Shown piece by piece: positions 1 through 26,229 of a DNA stretch of 64,000 nt. The DNA is from Chloropicon primus. Lineage: Eukaryota. The position numbers and the translations under genes are program-made. The stretch's first letter is position 1. Each line of letters starts with the position of its first letter. A model generated the notes under the pieces. That model saw nothing but the letters and a program-made list of their open reading frames with translations, had not been told where the DNA came from and did not search any database. The stretch spans positions 620,001-684,000 of the forward strand of contig CP060754.1 in assembly GCA_023205875.1 (NCBI GenBank). The letters are read 5' to 3'.

Positions 1-2211
1 AAAAGGGACGCTCTCTATACGTGTATACAGGCGGTCGCCAGCGGAATAAATGACGTGCTGAATGAACATGAAGGGGAAGACGAAAGAATGGAAGAAGCAT
101 GTGTGGTGCCTAAACGGGTTACTTTGCCGGAGAAAGAAGTCGATGGCAAGTCGACCACTGGGGCTGAGGAGCAAGATCTCCTGAGTCTTCTCTTGGAGAA
201 AGATGAAAAGCAGATCATCTCGTCAAGCAATGCCGGAACCGCTGACGATGGCAAAATGGATTTGAACTTTGTGATCGAAGCCATTCAGCCCCAGTTCAAC
301 ATGGAATCGGAGGGTGCAAATGGTCGATTCCTCTTGTCTGCAGAGAAAGCGATCGTGAAAGGCTACAAGGGTTTTGTCGACGGGGTCTGCTTCCAGCAGA
401 AGAGTGAGATTGCCTTGCAATCGATTCAGATGCACATCTGTCAATTGGATGTCGACCCCAATGCCAAGGTTCAATGGCTGGATGCAGGCCAAGTGAAGTC
501 CGGGACTCTAGTGTCAGCCAACGAGTCTTTGCTGCACTCTGTCTTTGATCCGTGCTCGATTTCTTTGAATTTGTTTCAGAGAGGTCAGTATTTCGAGATC
601 GACATTGATTTGGCCTCCCTAACCCTCGCGCTTGATTCCAGGGAGTTTCAAATTACTTCTGACGTGGTGAGCAGGATTGCCCTTTCCCCCTTCCCAAAGA
701 TGTCGGAAAAGGTAAGCTTGTCCCTGCTTGGCTCCGACATGCTACAGATCACGAAACTGGGCATGTTCGCCTCACCAGAGCAACTGGATAGTTTCCAATC
801 TTTGAATAGAGCAGCCTACGAGGATCTGCAGAACATCGTGTACGCCCAGCAAATCTCAAAACGAGCTGTGGAAGAAGTGATTGAAAAGCCGGGAATCCGG
901 TGCCCAGATGCCTCGTACTTGAAGGAGAGGTTGGGCGAAAACATGAGGTACACTTTGCAGGAGAAGAAGGACCTTGTGAAGACATTGCTGCAGGCCGAGA
1001 AAAAGGCTAAAGCCTTGTCCAGCACAAACCACAAGCACACGAAGGTTTCTTTGAAGGTCAACGAGGTGAAGTGGTCTCTCTGCAAAGACAGAAAGGTCTT
1101 TATGGAGGCGACCTTGAAGAAGGTCAACTTCTCGAGGGTCCGTTACGAGGACTTTTCTGGAATAACAAGATTTCAGATCGGGGATGTCACCTGCGTCGCA
1201 AGCATTTTGGACGAGAAAGAAAACGTGAACACGTACGAGGTCCTCAGAAATTGGCAGATCAAGGAGTACGACTCTGTCCCTTTCATCCACATCTACATGG
1301 TCGCCAACGGGGAGAGCAATGGGTTGTCCTCCTTTGAGCTTTGTGACATCACCATGCATCCGATTGAAATATCCATGGCGCAAAAGACGGCCTCGGAGAT
1401 TCAAAAGTACTTTTTCCACAAGACCCTTAGCCCTGAGGAGAGGCAAAAGTTGTGGTCCCACGTCAGCAGCAGCTCTCCAGCGCCCCCAAGGAAAAGTGCG
1501 AACTTGGCCGAGAAGCCAGGGAAAGATGAATCGGGAGAGCAAAGCCCGGGGAGCTCTAGTCGGAGCCACCACAAGTCAACCCGCTCTCTGGATCTCAGTG
1601 CCCGCTCCATGGAGTCCGCGCTGTCTTCCCAATCCCAGGAGGTGTCCCACGTCCGAGCAAAATCGTTCGCGATGAGCGCGACGGACTACCTGCTCGAGGA
1701 CGAGGACATGGACGAGAACTTGTCTATGCTTGATCTCCTGAATGGGGGCTTCCCCCTGTCCCCATCGGACAGGAAGCTCATCCGCCAGGACAGCATGAAG
1801 CAGGAAAGGGGAATCCTCCTGAACAAAGTCAGGTTCAACGAGTTGGGCATCAAAGTCAGTTTCGAGAGCATCGTCCTGAACGTTTCGGACATGAAGGTGT
1901 ATCTGGACACCTTCAACTATCTTTACTACAAGGGGACGTGGAAGGACTTGCTGGACAAGGTGAAGTGGAACATCGTCAAATCGGTGGTCAAGAATGTAGC
2001 AGGGTTCCAATTCGGCAAAATCAAGGCGTTCACCAGCAGCCTCACGCCGAGTAAACTGAAACCCATATCGGCGAAGAAAAAATCCATCTTCTCCTGGAAT
2101 CGCGGCGAGTCTCCTCCCGGAAGCTCCGAGAAGAAGGGCGAGAAAGACAAGTCTGAGGACGCCATGCAGAAGAGGAAGCTTCTCTTTGGCGACAAGTACG
2201 TGAAGAAATAG
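1..2211 (+). CDS. 5'-truncated SABRE/KINKY POLLEN (BLTP2/FMP27, Apt1 domain) bridge-like lipid transfer protein, C-terminal part
   Basis: Open frame runs from the window edge. Motifs PQFNMESEGANGRFLL, LDVDPNAKVQWL and C-terminal GTWKDLLDKVKWNIVKSV resemble plant SABRE/KIP. TGTAA at 2264-2268. Confidence 0.75.
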   Translation, partial: KRDALYTCIQAVASGINDVLNEHEGEDERMEEACVVPKRVTLPEKEVDGKSTTGAEEQDLLSLLLEKDEKQIISSSNAGTADDGKMDLNFVIEAIQPQFNMESEGANGRFLLSAEKAIVKGYKGFVDGVCFQQKSEIALQSIQMHICQLDVDPNAKVQWLDAGQVKSGTLVSANESLLHSVFDPCSISLNLFQRGQYFEIDIDLASLTLALDSREFQITSDVVSRIALSPFPKMSEKVSLSLLGSDMLQITKLGMFASPEQLDSFQSLNRAAYEDLQNIVYAQQISKRAVEEVIEKPGIRCPDASYLKERLGENMRYTLQEKKDLVKTLLQAEKKAKALSSTNHKHTKVSLKVNEVKWSLCKDRKVFMEATLKKVNFSRVRYEDFSGITRFQIGDVTCVASILDEKENVNTYEVLRNWQIKEYDSVPFIHIYMVANGESNGLSSFELCDITMHPIEISMAQKTASEIQKYFFHKTLSPEERQKLWSHVSSSSPAPPRKSANLAEKPGKDESGEQSPGSSSRSHHKSTRSLDLSARSMESALSSQSQEVSHVRAKSFAMSATDYLLEDEDMDENLSMLDLLNGGFPLSPSDRKLIRQDSMKQERGILLNKVRFNELGIKVSFESIVLNVSDMKVYLDTFNYLYYKGTWKDLLDKVKWNIVKSVVKNVAGFQFGKIKAFTSSLTPSKLKPISAKKKSIFSWNRGESPPGSSEKKGEKDKSEDAMQKRKLLFGDKYVKK

Positions 2212-2277
2212 AAGAAAGCGAAAGAAAATGTATATATAAAAGAATTGATTGGTATACAAGATGTGTAAGATTAAGGG

Positions 2278-3135
2278 CTACTGTAAGAGTACATCATTGT
2301 AGATAGTTTGCAAGCAGCAAACGTATTCGTTTTCGTGTTCCCTGAGCAAGTTGACGTGTTTGCCCGTTTCCCACTTCTTGGCGAGAGCCACCTTTTTGCC
2401 GCCCTCCTCCTGCCTGCTGATAAACTCCTCGATCGCTCGATACCCGATGACCTTGTCCTCCGCGCTGTACAAGTAGAATTGCTTGGCCTTTTCGAGTGAC
2501 CCAAAGCTGCGAAGCACCGAGGCGTTCCAGTCGCCATATATCATCCGGTCGTAGACTGCCCAGCCATTGTCCCAGAAGGTCTTGAACCACTTCCTGTTGT
2601 AAACGGACAAGGCCGTCTCCTCGTCCTTCGCCTTCAGAACCCCTGTCAGCACACCGACGACCGCATCCTCCCGGGTCAGCCCCAAGCTTGGCCCGCAGTC
2701 GAACACCACCGCAGCCACGGAGTCTTTGATCTCACACTTGAGGTCTTCCTGCAGCACGCTGCCGAAGAAGGTGAACCCGCCTTGGGAGAACAGGTGCCAG
2801 ACCACTTTCCCTTCTGGTTTGGGCAAGTTCTGCAGGAACTTCCTGGCTTCCCGTTCGCAGAACCTCCGCAACAAGATCGCCTTGACGCTCGGGGAGTAGC
2901 AGATCACCCGCTTGACCCCGATCTTCCTCCACGTCTCGCAGTACTTGTCGAGGTGCCTCTGCTGACTCCCAAACCAGCCCACGCAGATGACGCTAACGTC
3001 CTTGGCCCTCGAAACGCTCGGCGCATTCGCACGCTTCCTGAACGACGCCGCCTCCGTGTTCAGCGGCCGACGCGACTGCCCCACCGACCACGCGAGCACC
3101 GGGCTCGCCACCCTCGCCACCCCCCTCCACCGCAT
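2278..3135 (-). CDS. DUF829/TMEM53-family alpha/beta-hydrolase-like protein
   Basis: Motifs VGWFGSQQRHLDKY, HLFSQGG, VFDCGP, LYSAEDKVI, HVNLLREHENEY. Start taken at the first ATG (MRWRG). Confidence 0.8.
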   Translation of the reverse strand: MRWRGVARVASPVLAWSVGQSRRPLNTEAASFRKRANAPSVSRAKDVSVICVGWFGSQQRHLDKYCETWRKIGVKRVICYSPSVKAILLRRFCEREARKFLQNLPKPEGKVVWHLFSQGGFTFFGSVLQEDLKCEIKDSVAAVVFDCGPSLGLTREDAVVGVLTGVLKAKDEETALSVYNRKWFKTFWDNGWAVYDRMIYGDWNASVLRSFGSLEKAKQFYLYSAEDKVIGYRAIEEFISRQEEGGKKVALAKKWETGKHVNLLREHENEYVCCLQTIYNDVLLQ

Positions 3136-3400
3136 CGATAGACGCCTCCTCTTGTCCTCCTCGACCTCGACCTCGACCTCTCCGCTTCCCAGCCACAGCA
3201 ACAGCCCTGTGAGCAATAGCAGAGGGGGAGGAGGGAGGGAGAAGGAGGGAGTGGGAGAAGGAGGAGGGAGGAGGAGGAGTGCGAGGAGCGAGTCAAACCT
3301 AAAACCTAAAAGCAGCGAAGCCCAGGGAGCCCGAGCTGAGGGGTCGTGGTGTCGTCGTGGTGTCGTCGCTTGTCGTGCGGTCTTCCGTGTCGTCAGCACC

Positions 3401-5317
3401 ATGGCGTCGTCGAGCGGGAAGAAGGAGGTGGACAAGTGGACGCTGACGGAGGTGATAGGGCACGGGTCTTTCGCCAAGGTGTGGAAGGCGGTGCACAAGG
3501 AGACGAACCACGTTGCAGCGGTGAAAGAAATAAACACGGAGAGACTCAACAAGAAGCTTTTGGAGAGCCTGGCCTCGGAGATAGCCGTGCTGCAGCGTGT
3601 GAACCACCCGCACATCGTGAACCTTTACGAGACCATAAAGAGGCCGGAGAAGAGCAGGATATACCTCGTCCTCGAGTACTGCCAGGGCGGTGACCTGTCG
3701 CACTTTGTGAAAAAGAACGGCCGTCTCGGGGAGGAGCGGGTGTTGTACTTCATGCGTCAGCTGTGCTCGGGGCTCAAGCACCTCAGGAGCCTGAACCTGA
3801 TGCACAGGGACCTGAAGCCCCAGAACTTGCTGCTGTCCACCTCCAAGGACGAGGAGGGGAAGGTCGTGCTCAAGATAGCGGACTTTGGGTTTGCCAGGGA
3901 CTTGAGCATCCACGGCCTGGCGGACACGCTCTGCGGCTCGCCGCTCTACATGGCGCCCGAGATACTGCAGTACAAGCAGTACGACGTGAAGGCCGACCTG
4001 TGGAGCGTCGGGGCGATCCTTTTCGAGCTAGTCAGCGGGGTCCCGCCGTACACCGGGAGCAACCACATCCAGCTCCTGAAGAGCATAGAGCAGAAGGAGG
4101 CGAGGCTCCCGCTGGACTTGGAGCTTTCTGTTCCCTGCAGGCACCTCATCAAGTGCCTGCTGGAAAAGAACCCGATCCAGAGGCTCTCCTTCGAGGGCCT
4201 GTTCTCGCACCCGTTTATCACGGGGGACACGAAGTCCCTCGAGGTGGACCAACTGTCGAGGCACTTTCAGGGGCACAGCATCAGCCGGAGCATCACGTAC
4301 AAGGCCCAGGCCGTGAGCAGGAGCCAGGGAAGGAGGCATTCCGGGGGGGCGAGCGGAAGGAAAGGCGTCGGCGAGGAGGCCGATCCCACCCAGCCTAAGA
4401 AAAAGGTGTCTCCCGGACTCGCCCCCCCTTCGGAGAGAAGCGCGCAGGGCAACTCTCAGTGCAGCTCGCTGGAGAAGGAGTACGTTCTCATCGAGAGCCC
4501 GGGGCCGAACCAGGCGAGCTCGGCCTCGTCCCAACAGTCGTCGTCGCAGCAGAGCAGACCGAATTCAAGCAGCCTGAGGACGAGGGGTATGAGTCTTGGA
4601 AGCACCGACATGTTCCGTCAGTACGCGGTGAAGTCCACTCTCAAGGGATCTGGTCCGGAATCGGCGCCCTCGACACCGAAAAAGTCGAACTTCAACTTGC
4701 CAATCCACAGGCCCGAGAGCAACCTGGAAAGAATTTTGCTTCTTGAGAAGTGTGCCACGATCATAGACTCCCAGGCAAGCAACCAGGAGGACAACAGCAA
4801 CGCCTTTGCCCTGTACCTTTTCAGCGCAAAGCTTCTGGAGACGTGCTGCAGGTTGATCCAGACGGAGCTGTCCTCGGCATCAGAGAAGGCTCCGGCTGAG
4901 GACGATGAAGGGAACGACATCAATTTTGACGAGTTCCAGAAGAGCACCCTGGTGAAGATGGAGGACCAGCTGGTGAAGGCTCAGACTCTGGCGGAGACCA
5001 GGCTTATCCCAACCGACTCGAGTCACAACAACACGATCCCAGATCCCTTGGATTTGATATACAAGGAGGCCTTGGCGATTGCCAGGAAGGGGGCAGTCGA
5101 AGAGATCATGGGGAACTACGCAAGCGGAGCGGAAAGCTACTTTTGCGCCCTCAACCTGCTTTTCTTCATCTGCACGGAGGCAAAGGAGATCGCCTTCGAC
5201 CCACCCCTGACGCTGGACCAGGCGGAGCAGGCCAGGGTTTACAACTACACCCTGAACATCCAGGAGAGATACACCGCCTGCGCTGCACAGAACTCAGCAC
5301 TATCGCCGCAGGAGTGA
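3401..5317 (+). CDS. ATG1: Serine/threonine kinase ATG1
   Basis: GHGSFAKV, HRDLKPQNLLL, DFGFAR, TLCGSPLYMAPE, AIM-like EYVLI, C-terminal MIT-like helical region. TGTAA at 5365. Confidence 0.9.
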   Translation: MASSSGKKEVDKWTLTEVIGHGSFAKVWKAVHKETNHVAAVKEINTERLNKKLLESLASEIAVLQRVNHPHIVNLYETIKRPEKSRIYLVLEYCQGGDLSHFVKKNGRLGEERVLYFMRQLCSGLKHLRSLNLMHRDLKPQNLLLSTSKDEEGKVVLKIADFGFARDLSIHGLADTLCGSPLYMAPEILQYKQYDVKADLWSVGAILFELVSGVPPYTGSNHIQLLKSIEQKEARLPLDLELSVPCRHLIKCLLEKNPIQRLSFEGLFSHPFITGDTKSLEVDQLSRHFQGHSISRSITYKAQAVSRSQGRRHSGGASGRKGVGEEADPTQPKKKVSPGLAPPSERSAQGNSQCSSLEKEYVLIESPGPNQASSASSQQSSSQQSRPNSSSLRTRGMSLGSTDMFRQYAVKSTLKGSGPESAPSTPKKSNFNLPIHRPESNLERILLLEKCATIIDSQASNQEDNSNAFALYLFSAKLLETCCRLIQTELSSASEKAPAEDDEGNDINFDEFQKSTLVKMEDQLVKAQTLAETRLIPTDSSHNNTIPDPLDLIYKEALAIARKGAVEEIMGNYASGAESYFCALNLLFFICTEAKEIAFDPPLTLDQAEQARVYNYTLNIQERYTACAAQNSALSPQE

Positions 5318-9029: not shown

Positions 9030-9089
9030 AGGCGGGAGCGCGGAAAAACCCTACAGGCGGGGAGCGCGGAAAAACCCTACAAACCCTAA
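9030..9089. promoter_or_regulatory. Duplicated ~25-bp motif with three telo-boxes (AAACCCTA)
   Basis: AGGCGGGAGCGCGGAAAAACCCTAC x2 followed by AAACCCTAA, about 130 bp upstream of the acidic protein start. Confidence 0.6.
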
Positions 9090-18180: not shown

Positions 18181-19058
18181 TTACGCGGACGCCGTAACCG
18201 CAGTATTCCCGCCGAGGCGAAAGGCCTTCTTTAAGAATTGAGCTGACAGCTTCAATATGCACTTGCCACCCAAGAGGCTGCCCATGCATCCTCCCATGAT
18301 CCACCCCTTCAGCAGCACGAACCCAGAGGCCTGCAAGGCTAACCTCGTGTACGCCGGCAGAAGCTTTCTGCTCACGCAAGCGAGGGCCAAAGTCTGGGCG
18401 GCCTGGGGCTTGACCTCAAGCACCTGGATCACCGCCTGGAGCGGGAGCCCGGGGAAGAGGCAGAGCGGCGACGCCGCGACCTGCAGAGCGGAGCTCGCTG
18501 TCGTCTGGACCCCCCGAAGGCCGCCCAGAAGGAAGCAGCTCGAAAAGTACAGTTTCAGCAGGTGGACGCCATTCGGCACGACAACGCCGTTGTCGTGGAA
18601 GTGGCGAGGGAGCACGTACTTTAGTGGAGAAGACGAGAAAGGGAGAGGGAAAAAATAATCAGCACCGACGAAAGCTTTGACGACCCAGCGCTTCGTGGCT
18701 CGTTCACCGTTACCTTCTCCAAACAGATGGGGCACACCTCGCTCTTTTGAGACACCGCGCACCAGTACAGCAAGCACTTCTCGTGGACGTGCTCATTCGT
18801 GCCCTTGCAGGCGCAGGGCGATATGAAAACGCTCTTGGACTCTCTGTCGACCGCCGCGCGTTTCCTTCTCGAGGGCCGGAGCTTCCTCCTCGCCACGTCC
18901 ATCGCCCTCGTCCACGCCGAATCCATAAGCGTCCAGTCGGGGCTTCGACAGCTACAGCTCGCGAGGCCATCCTCAACGACCTGAGGCACCGAGGTGCCGA
19001 GGCAGAACCTGCAAACCCTCTTTCCGGAACCCTTCGCCTCCTCGACCTTCCCCTCCAT
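18181..19058 (-). CDS. RING-CH (RINGv) E3 ligase-like protein (exons 19058-18714, 18618-18181)
   Basis: CRFC...SPCACKGTNEHVHEKCLLYW...CPIC. Intron 18713-18619. Hydrophobic C-terminal segments. Confidence 0.8.
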
Positions 19059-19237
19059 CGCCGTCGTCAATGACTCCTCCTCGCCCGATATCGATATCCA
19101 TCGGTGGGATTCCAGTGTATACCAGTTTGGTCACACCCAAAGGACAACCCACAAAACGTTTTCTCGTTCTCACTTGCTGGACAAGGCACTGGTAAAAAAA
19201 CTAGCCTCGCGAGAGGAAGGGAGGAGGACGCCGAGTG

Positions 19238-19245
19238 AAACCCTA
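19238..19245 (+). promoter_or_regulatory. Telo-box just upstream of the Fanzor ATG
   Basis: AAACCCTA ending 6 nt before ATG 19252. Confidence 0.4.
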
Positions 19246-19251
19246 GCAGTC

Positions 19252-21420
19252 ATGGCGCGATCAGGGAAGCGCCGTAAGAAAAAGGAGAAGCAGGGGAGTG
19301 GCTCGACGAGTTCCACAAGGAGGTCGCACTCTGGCGAGAGTCATGCTCAGGGCGCTTCGAAGTCGGGGCAGGAGTCTCCGACGACGGAGCCGTTACGTCG
19401 GTTCTGGAATCAGGGCTTGCAGTTGCTCTACTCGTTGTGCCTGCTTCCTATCGCGGACGACCCCGCCTCTGCGGGTGAGGGTTCGAGCACGCCTCGCAAG
19501 AAGCGGGGGCGGAAGCGGAAGGAGAAGCCGCTGGACGACCCCGCCTCTGCTTTCGAGGAGGGTTCGAGCACGCCTCGCAAGAAGCGGGGGGGGAAGCGGA
19601 AGGGGAAGCCGCCGGAGGCGGCTTCCTCTGCGGGTGAGAGTTCGAGCTCGTCAGGCAAGCCTCGCAAGAAGCCTCGCAAGAAGGGCAAGAAGAAGAACAA
19701 GAAGAAGGGTAAGAAGAAGAAGAACAAGAGGGGGAAGAAAGCAGGGAAGCAGCCGGGTGGCTTGGCGGACGACAGCGTGAAGAAGACCTGGTTCTCATCG
19801 ATCAAGAGAGAACTTGAAGAGGTAAAGTGTCCGAAGACGGGATGGAGGTCGTGCTTGAACCTTCCAGAAGATTCTGTGGTATCCGTCGAGACATTGCAGT
19901 CGCCCGCCAAAAGGAAGAGGGGGCAGAAACTGAAGACCTCCAAGCTATTGTCGGAGCGAACGGTGATACGGACGAGGAAGCTGAGGATGCGCTTGAACCC
20001 TGAGCAGGCGAAGTGCCTTTGCAACTGGATGGGAGCTGCGCGTTTCACATACAACAAGTGTTTGGAGGCGGTCAAGAAGGAGGGTTTTCCGCTGGTTTGG
20101 ACCGTCCTGCTGGACAGATTTGTGACGGCCAAACCGCGACGCCCTGAGGTCTTTGAGGGGCTGGAGAAAGAGCTGAAAGAAATCCAATGCTCTCCACGGC
20201 CATGGACAAAACAGGAGGCAGAGCTTTTCGCGGCCAGAGAGAAGAGACTCGAGAGCCAAATTGGAGGCAGACGATTTCGCGCCGAAGTGGCCAAGGACCG
20301 GGACTACGTTAGCGGGGCCTTTGTAAATCAGAAGCATCCTTGGCTGAAGGATACCCCCTGTGCCATCAGACAAGCTGCCGTGCGAAGTCTCATCAAGGCA
20401 TGGGATTCGAACATCGCGAAGCAGGAAGCGATGAAGGAGCGCGGCGAGGAGAAGGGGCACCGCTTCGTTCTCAAGTATCGTCAACGTCAGCAACCGAGCT
20501 CTTGGACCATTGAAATTGATGCAAGAGAGTTAAAGAACGTGGAGACGATCGAAAGGCCAAACACGAGGCACAAGGATGACACCAAGCACAACAAACGACG
20601 CAAGTGGACCAAGCTGGAGGTGTTCAAGAAGAAGATGGCCGGCGGGCCCCTGTACTTGACGGAGGAGATCCCCGGGGGCAAGATCGAGGGTGCCGTGAAG
20701 ATCACAAGAAATCGCCTTGGGCAGTTCCACATGCACATTCCCATCGCGACGCCATGGGATCGCCTGCCACCCCTGAAGCCTGAGAACAAGCGGAAGGTTG
20801 TCGCCCTGGATCCGGGAGTCAGGACCTTTCAGACGTCGTACTCGCCGCAAGAAGGCGTCGGGGAGTATGCCAAGGGCGAGCGAGGCTTCGCGAGGCTGTT
20901 CAACCTCTGCTGGAGGATTGATGAGATCATTTCCGAGCGCAAAGACCCAAAGGTGAAGCTCCCTTACCTCGACCGCCGCGACTTGAAGAGACAGCAATAC
21001 GCCTGCATGGAGAAAATTCGAGGTCTGACGAACGAGCTTCACAAAAAGGTAGCCAACGATCTATGCAGGAGGTTCGACACAATCCTCCTCCCGGAGTTCA
21101 AGTCCCAAGACATGGTGAAGAAGAACAACAACGGGAGACGCCGAGTGATCAGGAAGAAGACGGCTCGCACGCTCTTGACGTTGAGGCACTATGCGTTCAG
21201 AACGTTCTTGGCTTCCAAGGTGCTCTTGCACGGCAGTGAGCTGGCGATCGTGACGGAGGAGTACACCTCCAAGACCTGTGGCAGGTGCGGACACATCAAG
21301 GACAACCTGGGTGGAGCAGAGGTGTACAAGTGCCAGAAGTGTGGCTTCAAGTGCGGTCGGGATGTGAACGGGGCACGCAACGTCCTCCTGAAGCACTTGC
21401 GTCAACCAAAAAGTGTGTAA
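19252..21420 (+). CDS. Fanzor (eukaryotic TnpB, Fanzor2/IS607-type) RNA-guided RuvC endonuclease, 722 aa, intronless
   Basis: OrfB N-terminal motif RKLRMRLNPEQ...GAARFTYN. RuvC-I ALDPGVRTF (D codon 20809). ILLPEF with Pro at the canonical RuvC-II Glu position. Alternative Glu in VTEEYTSKTC (21256). Zn finger CGRC...CQKC. RuvC-III RDVNGARN (D codon 21361). Confidence 0.93.
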   Translation: MARSGKRRKKKEKQGSGSTSSTRRSHSGESHAQGASKSGQESPTTEPLRRFWNQGLQLLYSLCLLPIADDPASAGEGSSTPRKKRGRKRKEKPLDDPASAFEEGSSTPRKKRGGKRKGKPPEAASSAGESSSSSGKPRKKPRKKGKKKNKKKGKKKKNKRGKKAGKQPGGLADDSVKKTWFSSIKRELEEVKCPKTGWRSCLNLPEDSVVSVETLQSPAKRKRGQKLKTSKLLSERTVIRTRKLRMRLNPEQAKCLCNWMGAARFTYNKCLEAVKKEGFPLVWTVLLDRFVTAKPRRPEVFEGLEKELKEIQCSPRPWTKQEAELFAAREKRLESQIGGRRFRAEVAKDRDYVSGAFVNQKHPWLKDTPCAIRQAAVRSLIKAWDSNIAKQEAMKERGEEKGHRFVLKYRQRQQPSSWTIEIDARELKNVETIERPNTRHKDDTKHNKRRKWTKLEVFKKKMAGGPLYLTEEIPGGKIEGAVKITRNRLGQFHMHIPIATPWDRLPPLKPENKRKVVALDPGVRTFQTSYSPQEGVGEYAKGERGFARLFNLCWRIDEIISERKDPKVKLPYLDRRDLKRQQYACMEKIRGLTNELHKKVANDLCRRFDTILLPEFKSQDMVKKNNNGRRRVIRKKTARTLLTLRHYAFRTFLASKVLLHGSELAIVTEEYTSKTCGRCGHIKDNLGGAEVYKCQKCGFKCGRDVNGARNVLLKHLRQPKSV
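19456..19680 (+). repeat. 78-81-nt in-frame tandem repeat (2 copies + 1 degenerate) encoding DDPASA..EGSSTPRKKRG.KRK
   Basis: Units start at 19456, 19534 and 19615. Confidence 0.85.
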
Positions 21421-21448
21421 CTCCTCAGGGTTGCACATACGTTTGTTA

Positions 21449-21600
21449 GTACGGGCTGCCGTGCGTGGGCGGAAGTGTTCGTTCATGTACGGTGGAATGG
21501 TCGTGGTAGGGCTGAATTACCCTGCCGAGAAACTTACAAACTCGGTGAAACGACCTTTGCAGAAAACTAACAGGTAAGTTGTGGCCGGTCTCCTTCTCTC
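21449..21600 (+). ncRNA. Putative Fanzor omegaRNA (scaffold to ~21580, then candidate guide)
   Basis: 18-bp stem 21456-21473/21478-21495 with 7 G-U pairs. Stem 21499-21504/21550-21555 encloses hairpins 21505-21526 and 21525-21545. Loop AACTTAC 21531-21537 is complementary to GTAAGTT 21574-21580. Lies directly 3' of a TnpB-family ORF. Ends are uncertain. Confidence 0.7.
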
Positions 21601-21824
21601 CGTGTTTCTCTCTTTCAGTGGAAAGGAGAACTTGCCTTTGTGCTTCCAGTATTGACTGTGATTTCCCTACCGTCCTTTCGTGACTTTTCTGTGTGCTTTG
21701 CCAGCAAGGACAAAAAAACTTAAGCTCCTCTGTGTGGTGGTAGAAAACCGGCATGAATTACACAAATGAATGGCTTCACAAAAATGACGTGCGTGCACCA
21801 GGAGCGCGACTTGGGTCTTTTCCT

Positions 21825-23232
21825 TCACCAGTCGTCAGGCACCTCGCAACCCTCGTCGTCGTCGTCGGTGCACTGCCAGTCCAAGTCCCCCTCGGGGTTC
21901 GTGGCGCTCCTCAGCCTCCTCGCGGCGAGAATCGCGTCCATGGACTCCCCCTGCATGGGCAGCCGAAGGGCAGAGACTATCTTGTAGGCGATACCCACGA
22001 GGAAGTTCAGCACGGGGAACTCCATGATTTTTTGTATCCACCCCAGGTTTGCGGCGCTGTAGAGCAACTCAAGCGCCTCTGGCCCCCTGAGGATCTCGCT
22101 GCTCTCCTTAATGACGTGAATTGTGTCCATCCCCTCCTCGAAAGTGATCCCCTCGTTCAGCACGGGGTCGTAGTCCGGGTCCCTCAGGTTGACAAAGCAG
22201 ATCTTTCCCTTGTCGTCCCGCCTCTTGAGCATGTTGACCAGAGACATGCAGAGGTTGCAGTCGCCGTCGTAGAGGTACTTGACCTCCCAGTTCTGCGACG
22301 CGAGCGAGGTCGACGGGTCCCCCTCGAAAGGACCAAAGTCCTCCACGCTCGCCAGCGAGTCAAACCCGTCCAGGTCCACAAAAGTGTTGTCCGGGAAGCT
22401 CCCGTTTATCCAAAGACGCCTCTCCGACCCCATGATGGACTCCTTCTTCCTCAGGAGGGGCTGAGCACCGTGGTCGCGCCACGCAAACGAGGAAAAAAAA
22501 GCGTTCGCGCTCGTCAGTCGCCGGTCTTGCACGCCTCTCGCGCGCGGGGAGGGGAGGGGAAGAGTTCGGAGGGAAAATATCGCTCACCTGAAAAATGTCT
22601 GTCCTCGAAACGATCCCCAGCAAGTACCCCGCTTCGTCCACGACGGGCAGGCGGTGGACCTTGTACGCCAGCATGACCCCCGCAGCCTCGCCGATCCTCG
22701 CGTGCGGCCTCACGCAGACGGGAGGAGTGCTCATGTGCTTGCTCGCGACCGTGGTCTGGAGGTACGTCTTGTAGTCCGCCCGCGCCAGAAGGGGCCTGAG
22801 GTCGTGGCGCGATATCACGCCAACCACCTTGTCCCCGTCGTCCACGACGGGAACGCCCTCGACCCTCTTGTCCTGCAGCACCTTCCTCACCTCCTGGAGC
22901 GAGTTGTTGCCCCGTACCTTGGCCAGGGCGGTCGCGGGCGTCATGATGTCCTCCACGACGTCGTCCGGCTCTATCAGCTCTAAGCGGTCGAGGTTCTCGT
23001 TCGAGTAAGCGTCGGAACGCATCTGGGGCCCCTTGTCGTCGCTGCCCCTGCTCTTCTGCGAGTCGCTCTCCAGCTGAGCCCTCGCGAGCACCGGGCCCCT
23101 CTCGCCCCGGATTTTCAAACCGCGCTTCTTCCCATCCAAGGGGCACCGCTGCCTGCGGAGGAGGCTCGCCCGTATCTCCTTCTCATGCCTGCAGCTGGGC
23201 ACCTTGCACCTCGGACCCACCACCGCACGCAT
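21825..23232 (-). CDS. CBS-pair (CBSX-like) + DCC thiol-disulfide oxidoreductase fusion (exons 23232-22588, 22460-21825)
   Basis: CBS motifs VEGVPVVD...VVGVISRHD and VHRLPVVD...LLGIVSRTD. DCC motif YLYDGDCNLC. Phase-0 GTGAGC...CTCAG intron. Confidence 0.8.
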
Positions 23233-23553: not shown

Positions 23554-26229
23554 CTATTGTTGCTCGTTGATACCATACCGCTCGAGGATGGAGCGAGCCT
23601 CGGCCTCGCTGCAGCCCTTTCGGACAATCTTGTAGACTCCCTCCTGGGTCAGGTCGATTATGGTGGAGCCGGAAGTTCCCGCGTTCAGGCTGCCCCCGTC
23701 GTACACGTTGGCGCACTTGGACCAGATCTCTCGAAAGTGACCCACGGCCGTGCTGCTCTGGCCCCCGCTGATGTTCGCGCTGGTCAGCGCGATGGCGAAA
23801 CCGAGTTGGGACACCACGCCCCGGACGAAGGATGACTCTGGCACCCGGATTCCCACCGTCTTGGTGCCCGGGTTGAGGTTCTTGCTCAGCTCGGAGTCCT
23901 CCTTCCTGTTCAGCAGCAGGGTGTAAGGGCCAGGCAAGAACTCCTCGACCAGGCCCCCTGGGAGGTGGGACGCCTCCCCGTACCTCCCGATCTCCGAGGC
24001 GTGGGCGATGCAGAGAGCGAGAGGGAGGAACGCCGGACGTTGCTTGGCGTCGTAAATTCTGTCGATCCCCTCGTCGCTCGAAGCCGCCGCGGCCACCCCA
24101 TAGATCGTGTCCGTGGGGACTGCTATTATCTTTCCTTGCCTCAGCGCGTCCGCCGCCTTTCCCTCGTTCCACCGGCTCGCGGGGAGAGGCATGACCTCCC
24201 TGTCTTCCGGCGGTGGCCACGCCAAGGGCACGCCCCCCGTGGCCGTGGCGCCAGACGCGTCCAGAAAAGAAAAGTCGGCCACAAGCGACACGTGGTCCGA
24301 GGGGAAGGCCTGGGACGGCAAGTACCCCTGCTTCAGGACCCGGCCTTCGCTGTCCACGTCCTCTTCCCTGCACAAGTCCCTCTCCAGCGGCAACGGCGCA
24401 AAATCTTCCAGCTTCATTCCCTGGGGGTTGAAAAATATGTAGTCCAAAGCCCCGATGTACCCCTTGACGTAGTTTGTGAAGGACGAACGCAGCCCGTCCG
24501 CACTCGTCAGCGGGCCGAATGGATTCTTGAGATAGAACCCGGTGACCGCCTCGCCGCCAAGCGCGCTGCCCGCGTCGAGCTCGTACTTGAGCTCCTCGTC
24601 CTGCTCGAAGCCCGCCTCTTCGTCCCGGCCCTTCCAGGAGAACCTCAAGCAGTCCAGCCACTCGTAGTGCTCCCTAGACACGGAGCCTTTGGCCAAGAGC
24701 TCGATCGCGCCCGTGTCAGGCTCGCTGTTGAGGTCGCCGCAGATCAGGACAACACAGTCTCCCAGGAGCTTGTGGCGGGACAGCAGGTCTGACGCGTACG
24801 CCAGCATCACCGCAACAGACAGGGACCGCACGTGACTTGCACCCGGGTGAAAGTAGAGGTGCGTGTTCGTGACCAGTATCTTCCTCTTTGAGTCGTTCTC
24901 CTCGAGGAGCACGAACTGGGCGGCCGTGGAGATCTTCTTCAAGATCGCAGCGAGATTCGGGTCACTGGCAATGGCGCGCCCCACTCCCACCCCGAGGTGC
25001 TGCTCCAACCACTGCTCGTCCCCAAAGTAGTCGCGGATGTGGATGGATTCCTTGCCGATTGCGCTCAGCCTGCCGGATTTCCAGAACAAGGCGCAACCTT
25101 CCGCTTTGGACGTCTTGGGCCCGAAGAAGCCGGAGTAGCCCATGGATTCGAGACGCGGAGACCAAAACTTGTCGTACAAGTACGTGTCCATCTCCTGCAA
25201 GCAGACCACGTCGCTCGCAAAGCCTCCGATCTCAAAGAGGGAAAGCTGCTGCCTGTAACCGGTATCCAGGTGCTCCGGCGCAATCTCGGGGAACAGGACG
25301 TCCCTGGCATAGTCCGTCTTCGAGTACACGTCCGCGAGAATGTTGTATGTCATGATTCGCAGACTGGTGTCCGGCTTGGATCGTGCCATCCTCTCGTGCC
25401 TAGCTTTCATGAACTCCAGGCGAGGCGCCCCCATCACGGGCTCCACCGAGACGGCTTCCCTCGGCTCCCCCAGCCTGCCCCCGCAGGCCGGCTCGCACTT
25501 GATCTTGATCCTTTTCCCAACGTGCTGCTCGTCGACGGCGAGGTCTGGCTTGCCCTCCGCGACGAGCTCCCACCCCTTCTCGCTCTCCACGTACCAGAGC
25601 CACTTGCAGTCGCCCCGGGAGCAAAACTCCAGCCTCGCGTAAGGGGACGTCACGATGTCCCCCGCCACGACCCTTTTGGGCAGAGATATCTCGCTGCACG
25701 CGGGCAGGTTGGTCTCTATCCTGAGCTTCTTCTCCAGCAGACCGGCGTTCTCTTCCTTGAGGGTGTACTTGAGCTCGAGCGTGTATCCCGTCTGCCACGC
25801 TTCCGAGTTCGTCGTGGTCTCGGGCACGGGCTTCCCAATGCGGTCCAGGATCGTGCAGCTCACGCCGAGATCGGCTGCGACGTCCGACGCCGCGGCCGAG
25901 TGCTCCCCCCTTGACTTCTTCCTCTCTCGACCGCCCTGGTTCCCCAGGCAAGCCGACGAGACCGTCCGCCGAATTCTCTCCAGGGGCTTTGCTATCGCCT
26001 CGTCCTTCTTGCGGCACATGTTCCGCATACGACCCGCCGGCGGAAGCGCCACTTGGATCGTCATCTCGTCCTCTCCATCGGCCTTCCGCACAAGGACGCG
26101 GTCCTCGCAAGTAGCCTGGAGTCCCACAGCACTCGCGAGTGCCCCCCTGTTCACGCCCCCGTTCGGCACCTTTCCCACCATACCTTTCGCTCCTCTCCCG
26201 CTCAGCCGATTGCAGAGTCCAAATAACAT
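23554..26229 (-). CDS. PDE12-like (CCR4/EEP) deadenylase fused to YrdC/Sua5 threonylcarbamoyl-AMP synthase
   Basis: EEP motifs TYNILAD, CLQE, GDLNS, LDYIF, PSDH. YrdC motifs AVPTDTIYG, KQRP, PGPYT, VGIRVP, LTSANISG, GSTIIDL. Confidence 0.88.
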   Translation of the reverse strand: MLFGLCNRLSGRGAKGMVGKVPNGGVNRGALASAVGLQATCEDRVLVRKADGEDEMTIQVALPPAGRMRNMCRKKDEAIAKPLERIRRTVSSACLGNQGGRERKKSRGEHSAAASDVAADLGVSCTILDRIGKPVPETTTNSEAWQTGYTLELKYTLKEENAGLLEKKLRIETNLPACSEISLPKRVVAGDIVTSPYARLEFCSRGDCKWLWYVESEKGWELVAEGKPDLAVDEQHVGKRIKIKCEPACGGRLGEPREAVSVEPVMGAPRLEFMKARHERMARSKPDTSLRIMTYNILADVYSKTDYARDVLFPEIAPEHLDTGYRQQLSLFEIGGFASDVVCLQEMDTYLYDKFWSPRLESMGYSGFFGPKTSKAEGCALFWKSGRLSAIGKESIHIRDYFGDEQWLEQHLGVGVGRAIASDPNLAAILKKISTAAQFVLLEENDSKRKILVTNTHLYFHPGASHVRSLSVAVMLAYASDLLSRHKLLGDCVVLICGDLNSEPDTGAIELLAKGSVSREHYEWLDCLRFSWKGRDEEAGFEQDEELKYELDAGSALGGEAVTGFYLKNPFGPLTSADGLRSSFTNYVKGYIGALDYIFFNPQGMKLEDFAPLPLERDLCREEDVDSEGRVLKQGYLPSQAFPSDHVSLVADFSFLDASGATATGGVPLAWPPPEDREVMPLPASRWNEGKAADALRQGKIIAVPTDTIYGVAAAASSDEGIDRIYDAKQRPAFLPLALCIAHASEIGRYGEASHLPGGLVEEFLPGPYTLLLNRKEDSELSKNLNPGTKTVGIRVPESSFVRGVVSQLGFAIALTSANISGGQSSTAVGHFREIWSKCANVYDGGSLNAGTSGSTIIDLTQEGVYKIVRKGCSEAEARSILERYGINEQQ

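Follow-up and report, generated by a model that had tools for sequence, protein, structure and literature searches.

How a Fanzor, a CRISPR-like DNA nuclease, keeps a site-specific guide on moving from an IS607 element into a eukaryotic transposon with different ends is an open evolutionary step, and one locus of the marine green alga Chloropicon primus raises this question directly. The stretch analyzed here, referred to as the window, comprises 64,000 nucleotides (nt) of contig CP060754.1 (assembly GCA_023205875.1, positions 620,001 to 684,000), and all coordinates are window positions. It carries a Fanzor2 open reading frame (ORF) followed by a predicted omegaRNA scaffold, whose last base borders a splice donor in use at the RNA level. 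The chances are judged about even that the locus represents a multicopy, transposase-less Fanzor2 element whose scaffold ends at a used donor and in which splicing likely supplies the guide of the nuclease.

Contigs of one DNA run (X1) and of RNA-like runs from three studies (X4, X5, and X7) were compared with the window. As X4 and X5 splice the intron of a neighboring host gene at 18714, both hold RNA. The RNA-like contigs carry no strand and no small-RNA ends and give no proof of guide loading, and their loose ends were counted among the loose ends listed. Relatives with DNA are denoted by L and relative proteins by P. Statements on published work refer to the portions of each source that were covered.

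A used splice donor at the end of the predicted scaffold

The last base of the scaffold, 21573, forms the exon side of the consensus splice donor AG/GTAAGT. The donor 8-mer AGGTAAGT occurs three times in 128,000 positions, and GT[AG]AG occurs at 1.4e-3 per position. One X5 contig joins 21573 to 21705 across GT..AG, and the DNA run X1 contains no such joint. Contigs ending at 21573 were found in X4 and X5, while an X7 contig leaves the window at 21574. The loose ends at 21573/21574 in X5 and X7 continue into sequence outside the window, and two loose-end motifs from these runs had no match within it. The donor at the scaffold end is used in RNA, at this locus on one contig. The hexamer GTAAGT was constant in the window copy, in the copies on chromosomes 3 and 6 (Lemieux 2019 Suppl. 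Data 8, PMC6731263), and in a deleted derivative from X4 and X5, with positions +7 and +9 varying, which fits a donor rather than a fixed guide. This expressed derivative, seen as loose ends at 19852, is internally deleted: the N-terminal Fanzor sequence leads straight into a scaffold end that has diverged and reads ACGG before the same donor hexamer. Among the IS607-type relatives, a splice donor at the scaffold end occurred in none of ten.

The sequence in front of the donor is predicted to be an omegaRNA scaffold inherited from IS607 relatives. Compared with shuffled sequences, 21415-21573 folded with a z of -4.81 and 21574-21724 with a z of 0.01. The structured non-coding sequence that the original prediction had placed 3' of the ORF was therefore borne out up to 21573 but not beyond 21574, and the donor at its end had been overlooked. 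The scaffold is closed by a pseudoknot-type stem of 6 bp between 21445-21450 and 21566-21571. In the alignment with five relatives, all 36 of 36 cells of this stem were paired, with compensatory changes in five of six pairs, while slid controls were paired at 19-64%. Shuffles gave 0/500 on four of five measures, although these counts are not probabilities since the stem was picked from the alignment. Near-identical copies of relatives diverge right after the stem plus 2 nt in three of five pairs (L053/L057, L066/L069, and L068/L069), whereas L008/L009 diverge one base later and L013/L026 elsewhere. In the structure of ApmFz2, the mimivirus Fanzor2, the pseudoknot includes a pair between G(-192) and C(-2), with +1 as the first guide position (Schargel 2024, PMC11832414). 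This register corresponds to G21445:C21571, which makes 21573 position 0 and 21574 guide position +1. In the IS607 TnpB studied by Yoon, the pseudoknot was needed for activity (PMC10711439). As splicing puts new sequence at guide position +1, it likely makes the guide, and both loading and cleavage are predictions.

Several other searches added no support. No Rfam family scored above the gathering score for the scaffold or the intron, and an IStron, that is, a group I intron spanning the element, was rejected since no Rfam intron matched and the intron seen is of the GT..AG type with 131 nt. A rule-based search recovered the stem in 18 of 43 sequences and chose other helices in some (L005, L009, L022, and L024), so it was not counted as support. 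Two further scaffold alignments were rejected for a misaligned 5' arm. The scaffold-end motif had six matches in viral contigs, none of them similar beyond the motif and all attributed to chance.

The predicted guide after splicing is the 20-nt start of exon 2. Neither the viral contigs nor the rest of the window contain an exact copy of it, which leaves the idea of a viral spacer unsupported. A second AG at 21724 lies flush with the flank; a splice to it would turn the flank into the guide, with CGG in front of that sequence in the empty allele described below, and no join there occurred among the joins listed. Inspected by eye in two noisy reads (Lemieux 2019 Suppl. Data 8), the last 31 nt of the family lack an AG, and the first one comes no more than 4 nt from the end; a full-length copy would therefore take its acceptor from beyond the element.

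The Fanzor2 protein

The ORF encodes a Fanzor2 with an intact active site, for which RNA-guided DNA cleavage dependent on a target-adjacent motif is predicted. The motifs of the uninterrupted 722-amino-acid (aa) frame are those named in the original prediction, with DPG at 520, ILLPEF at 611-616 (its proline being P614), TEEYTS with E669, CxxC at 676 and 694, and RDVNGARN with D704. The three catalytic codons are located at 20809 (D520), 21256 (E669), and 21361 (D704). Pfam matches within the ORF were Cas12f1-like_TNB (E 8.6e-18) and HTH_OrfB_IS605 (E 2e-6). The top sequence match in the PDB was the mimivirus Fanzor2 9b0l (E 8.6e-20), whose catalytic residues D324, E467, and D501 align with D520, E669, and D704. 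This was also the top Foldseek match (E 2.5e-12) of a structure model (pLDDT 82) of the 99% identical copy P0003. The suggested Fanzor identity was upheld by these comparisons, in which the ORF matches the C-terminal and HTH domains of TnpB by profile and the P0003 model matches Fanzor2 by structure.

A DPG motif in RuvC-I, by which Yoon 2023 (PMC10711439) defines Fanzor2, is present. The alternative glutamate stands six residues ahead of the zinc finger (E669/C676) and aligns with E467 of ApmFz2, while the canonical one is lost (P614). The RuvC-III aspartate and the CxxC..CxxC finger accompany a TnpB-like fold that is nearest to Fanzor2 in the P0003 model, and a scaffold with a terminal pseudoknot stem was found computationally 3' of the ORF. 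In 26 aligned relatives the catalytic motifs were invariant or nearly so, while the glutamate behind P614 was variable. All motifs were kept in 17 of 18 C. primus proteins, the exception being a fragment of 307 aa.

The Lys/Arg-rich N-terminus, judging by its composition, likely provides nuclear localization signals. The 8-nt motif shortly 5' of the ATG is one that we take to be telobox-like and a candidate promoter element. Three telobox-like AAACCCTA motifs are also clustered at 9046-9088. The sequence 5' of the ATG (19188-19245) is strongly unlike that of the chromosome 17 copy, and an A-run at 19194 is longer in X5, pointing to a variable promoter or 5' untranslated region (UTR).

IS607 ancestry and transposase search

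Metagenomic IS607 elements were the nearest relatives with DNA. They carried the serine recombinase TnpA in 59 of 80 loci, including five of the best six, and in the nearest (L001 and L002) TnpA and the Fanzor N-terminus are encoded by overlapping sequence in different frames. A quick tree grouped the C. primus copies with P0006, L001, L002, and L003 (SH-aLRT 97). A search of 77 long frames and eight ORFs of the window, with ORFs below 200 codons scanned in part, gave no transposase family, and no DDE transposase was found. The original prediction that the window lacks a transposase ORF held for these 85 frames, but it had missed a decayed trace of IS607 TnpA that overlaps the Fanzor N-terminus. 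The longer part of this trace reached E 1.6e-13 with a profile of five relatives, a value inflated by the shared Fanzor frame, and just E 0.003 with a trimmed independent profile. Instead of an intact TnpA there is only this stop-ridden remnant, and instead of ending at the scaffold dinucleotide the insertion extends 151 nt past 21573. A Replitron is not indicated either, as neither a Rep-Y1 transposase ORF nor a terminal repeat at 19105/21724 was found. No Chloropicon-named TnpA appeared among the best 120 of 1410 matches.

Some relatives differ in their architecture. On L003, a giant-virus-like contig with poly(A) polymerase, ABC1 kinase, and WLM genes, a Fanzor2 51% identical to that of the window (1335-3393) has no TnpA match. 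It is flanked by 78-nt inverted repeats (99%) that consist of its scaffold region, apparently with TA at their borders, and by 194-nt direct repeats further out, and looks like a separate capture as a terminal inverted repeat (TIR) element. The metagenomic proteins P0030 and P0062, of about 930 aa, have the C-terminal part of a Fanzor fused to XPG-type nuclease domains (PF00867 and PF00752). In viral contigs, a single-protein search found no relative, while an alignment-based search found three distant ones.

Insertion, empty allele, and copy family

The element was found to be wider than the 19252-21600 originally proposed. An X1 contig of depth 113 joins 19104 to 21725, apart from any letters between the two sides, which places the whole insertion at 19105-21724 (Table 1). 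Flank contigs in X1 had depths of about 135 and long element contigs of 4078-4904, while the filled right junction had a depth of 70.8 at 21724. The insertion is thus heterozygous in X1, with one filled and one empty allele, so the empty site that had been proposed to be sought between the RING-CH and CBS-DCC genes does exist. The intergenic stretch that received the insertion, from the CBS-DCC stop to the RING-CH start, measures about 146 nt. Both flanking genes appear intact, as originally read, with their Pfam domains present and RNA-like contigs covering both. At 21724/21725, X1 and X5 have two letters (CT) more than the window, either because the strains differ or because the assembly slipped within a CT repeat.

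Table 1. Position, strand, and description of features at the Fanzor2 locus.
Feature	Position	Strand	Description
Predicted omegaRNA scaffold	21415..21573	+	closing stem followed by AG, corresponding to the ancestral IS607 right end
Spliceosomal GT..AG intron	21574..21704	+	131 nt, 40% T, from guide position +1; X5 joint 21573 to 21705
Predicted guide after splicing	21705..21724	+	20 nt, start of exon 2
Fanzor2 ORF	19252..21420	+	722 aa, stop-free, single frame; D520, P614, E669, zinc finger C676-C697, D704
Lys/Arg-rich N-terminus with 81-nt repeats	19252..19935	+	repeat spacing 81/78/87 nt; K+R 0.29; length differs among copies
Telobox-like motif	19238..19245	+	shortly 5' of ATG; one of four in the window, of which three lie at 9046-9081
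Decayed IS607 TnpA, C-terminal part	19755..20141	+	with stops, in a frame overlapping Fanzor; no catalytic N-terminal motif
Weaker TnpA trace	19311..19487	+	-3.8 bits
Whole insertion	19105..21724	+	2620 nt, copy truncated at both ends; X1 empty-allele joint 19104 to 21725
GG common to host flank and element left end	19103..19104	+	copy without the 19 nt preceding GG in other copies
Copy-specific tail	21698..21724	+	27 nt in place of the family's last ~31 nt; includes the acceptor used, 21704
Host RING-variant (RING-CH) gene	18181..19058	-	PF12906; ATG 46 nt from insertion
Host CBS + DCC1-like gene	21825..23232	-	PF00571 and PF04134; stop 100 nt from insertion

The window copy has a single G in common with the host at its junction and no target-site duplication (TSD). 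A 19-nt loose end in X1 stands ahead of 19103, and the chromosome 17 insertion opens with the same letters. The copies on chromosomes 3 and 6 have about 31 nt in common beyond 21697 that are missing from the window copy (Lemieux 2019 Suppl. Data 8). By these comparisons the window copy is truncated at both ends, which accounts for its odd ends and absent TSD. Degenerate TIRs and a 5-nt TSD were accordingly absent from this truncated copy, and a TIR/TSD search around the ORF returned chance-level candidates only. The 27-nt tail is missing from the empty allele in X1, is unlike the chromosome 3 and 6 copies, and has no second copy within the window; it looks like the product of a repair-mediated insertion. 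In the same source, the insertion on chromosome 17 opens with 5 extra nt and those on chromosomes 3 and 6 with 24-25, but these are noisy long-read calls in cells of 400 characters that do not extend to the far ends.

The locus belongs to a transposase-less transposon family of this alga, present in some 25 or more near-identical copies. Near-identical proteins carry the database name "putative IS605 transposase [Chloropicon primus]" and form a 90% cluster of 46 members spread over several chromosomes, of which 40 were read and 15 were among the matches listed. Lemieux 2019 (PMC6731263) annotates 25 copies with RNA-seq depth (Suppl. Data 6), describes the genome as diploid, and shows at least three copies as heterozygous in the published strain (Suppl. 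Data 8). Yoon 2023 (PMC10711439) had already described the family as a non-autonomous transposon whose TIRs are degenerate and whose 5-nt TSD varies, and had found no partner, so the Fanzor itself was already known; the listed proteins UPR03652, UPR04245, and QDZ25014 read like the window Fanzor over the part compared. The non-autonomous element of the original prediction agrees with this description, with the multicopy state, and with the frames scanned. Variant blocks are shuffled among P0002-P0134 relative to the window ORF (e.g., GRRFRAEVAKD versus GRAFRIQVGKD), suggesting gene conversion within the family.

Two observations concern other loci. An unrelated heterozygous insertion of 2531 nt at chromosome 1:974796 (Lemieux 2019 Suppl. 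Data 8) represents a second mobile family in the genome, and a single ORF on the reverse strand of the window (23554-26229) combines a PDE12-like deadenylase with a Sua5/YrdC domain.

Weighing of alternative explanations

Several observations speak against a guide made by splicing. The join from 21573 to 21705 was seen on a single X5 contig, whose short side has 26 letters, the other loose ends are unmapped and could be genomic copies ending at 21573, and X4 and X5 also contain unspliced sequence. Good acceptors inside the element at 21618 and 21649 had no join, and the AG-free zone ahead of the acceptor (21650-21697) was not significant (P 0.33). The scaffold boundary is uncertain by one base, the next letter being T in eight of ten relatives, and plain folding with 3' sequence added loses the closing stem (P 0.0-0.19), which is expected of a pseudoknot and gives no support. 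As an acceptor AG also precedes the target in the filled allele, self-cutting calls for an explanation.

An ordinary 3'-UTR intron of the Fanzor mRNA could account for much of this. Such an intron may tune mRNA decay or remove a self-target without any role in the guide, which would be the fixed sequence after 21573 or none that works. Introns well behind a stop codon can trigger nonsense-mediated decay, and the junction, 153 nt past the Fanzor stop, lies in this range; the unspliced contigs and the heterozygosity of published copies, as of the window site in X1, agree as well. However, this explanation does not say why the donor and the scaffold end meet at the very same base, the constancy of +1 to +6 with variable +7/+9 is donor-like and not guide-like, the whole scaffold is kept in the spliced RNA, and the active site is kept in 17 of 18 proteins. 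It is regarded as rather unlikely. Alternatively, the spliced guide could be aimed at the right flank of the element itself, and a Fanzor cut about 20 nt past the acceptor AG could set the right border of the DNA moved or copied, leaving a short tail per insertion without a dedicated transposase. All three right junctions have copy-specific nt inside the insertion (24, 25, and 27), ending about 20-23 nt past the first AG, Fanzors cut 14-21 nt behind the target-adjacent motif (Saito 2023, PMC10432273), and neither an autonomous partner (Yoon 2023) nor a TnpA under the name of Chloropicon, among the matches given above, was found. Two of the three tails nevertheless come from noisy long-read calls and could be long target duplications or imprecise breakpoints, and 5-nt TSDs with degenerate TIRs (Yoon 2023) as well as the 5 extra nt opening the chromosome 17 insertion speak for other ends, which makes this explanation improbable.

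A still-mobile IS607 element, moved by a serine recombinase in trans and inserting at GG without duplication, would fit the left flank, which ends in GG with one common G and no TSD, and the IS607 ancestry. In the family, though, GG is internal to the left end, the IS607 right end at 21573 lies 151 nt inside the insertion, and TnpA has decayed with no Chloropicon-named one among those best matches, so this is considered very improbable. Hardly credible is a single-copy nuclease domesticated by the host, as the original prediction had allowed, or a contaminant. Host-like GC content at third codon positions (0.74 in the ORF versus 0.72-0.85 in the host) and the fact that the family is expressed (Lemieux 2019 Suppl. 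Data 6) would suit domestication, yet the many near-identical copies on several chromosomes and the empty allele reject it by the standard set at the outset, and a single-copy gene fixed at the locus is rejected on the same counts. Contamination is contradicted by the GC3 value and by junction contigs in both DNA and RNA runs, which connect the element to its flanks as had been asked of an authentic locus.

Comparison with known systems

The closest described system is the Fanzor2* of C. primus (Yoon 2023, PMC10711439), listed as "IS605 transposases" by Lemieux 2019 (PMC6731263), which is the same non-autonomous multicopy family; compared with it, the window copy is truncated at both ends and without the 5-nt TSD. 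Yoon 2023 proposes that TIR and TSD lie within the Fanzor2* scaffold, whereas the scaffold here stops about 150 nt before the element end. ApmFz2 (9b0l, PMC11832414) is alike in its triad of DPG, shifted glutamate, and aspartate, its fold (TM 0.57), its pseudoknot register, and a basic N-terminal extension, but has 520 aa compared with 722, and its guide follows the scaffold directly in the DNA. The marine metagenome IS607 Fanzor2 loci (L001, L002, and L004-L006) have 37-56% protein identity, the closing stem with an NG end, and an N-terminus overlapping TnpA. In contrast to the window copy, they have kept TnpA, which in L001 and L002 is shortened or carries a frameshift, and they have no donor at the end (0/10 relatives).

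IStrons, which combine a group I intron with IS605/IS607 and TnpB (PMC13565253), likewise place splicing and omegaRNA on one transposon transcript. Their intron is self-splicing, excises the entire element, and competes with the omegaRNA; here the intron is spliceosomal, lies past the scaffold, and would serve to form the guide. Replitron-1 of Chlamydomonas (Craig 2023, PMC10288648) also inserts behind RG and has copy-specific "fuzzy" right ends. In contrast, the window has no Rep/HUH transposase, its RG is a truncation microhomology, and a terminal direct repeat was not seen. Jiang 2023 (PMC10530073) reports introns only within Fanzor coding regions. Neither "intron" nor "splic" occurs in the main text of Yoon 2023, nor "splic" in its supplement, with Figures 2, 4A, and S3 outside this check. 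In the open literature, including Yoon 2023, PMC13565253, Jiang 2023, Saito 2023, and PMC12633428, no account was found of a spliceosomal junction where a Fanzor scaffold ends, a scope that excludes subscription papers, Repbase, and the figures of Yoon, in which this boundary might be shown. The link between splicing and guide formation is thus apparently undescribed, while the Fanzor2* family itself is known.

Proposed mechanism and its meaning

Under the proposed guide-by-splicing mechanism, an IS607 element with its scaffold flush with its end would have lost TnpA and become enclosed by new, longer ends, which would have left about 150 nt of fixed sequence 3' of the scaffold. An intron across this fixed sequence would rejoin the scaffold to sequence at or beyond the new right end and so restore a site-specific guide. 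The spliced RNA is predicted to be loaded by Fanzor2, DNA matching exon 2 to be cut, and repair of the break from the filled homologue to help copies persist in the diploid alga. In the window copy, exon 2 opens with the 20-nt tail, which is missing from the empty allele, so no homing would be expected there; a tail guide would spare the empty allele, which fits its survival. That this is the first OMEGA system with a guide assembled by the spliceosome, in which the right end is an intron, the acceptor lies at or beyond the insertion site, each copy has its own guide, and splicing controls the target, is possible at somewhat less than even chances.

Should splicing here prove incidental, the locus would be one more ordinary member of an already published family. 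In the published answer to the loss of the IS607 end, TIR and TSD are absorbed into the scaffold (Yoon 2023), and a spliceosomal intron would solve the problem in another way, one open to eukaryotes only. If true, it would be a constructive mirror of IStrons and a natural case of a splicing-controlled guide made from mRNA. With filled and empty alleles side by side, this diploid alga would be a place to watch the role of a Fanzor in the maintenance of its element.

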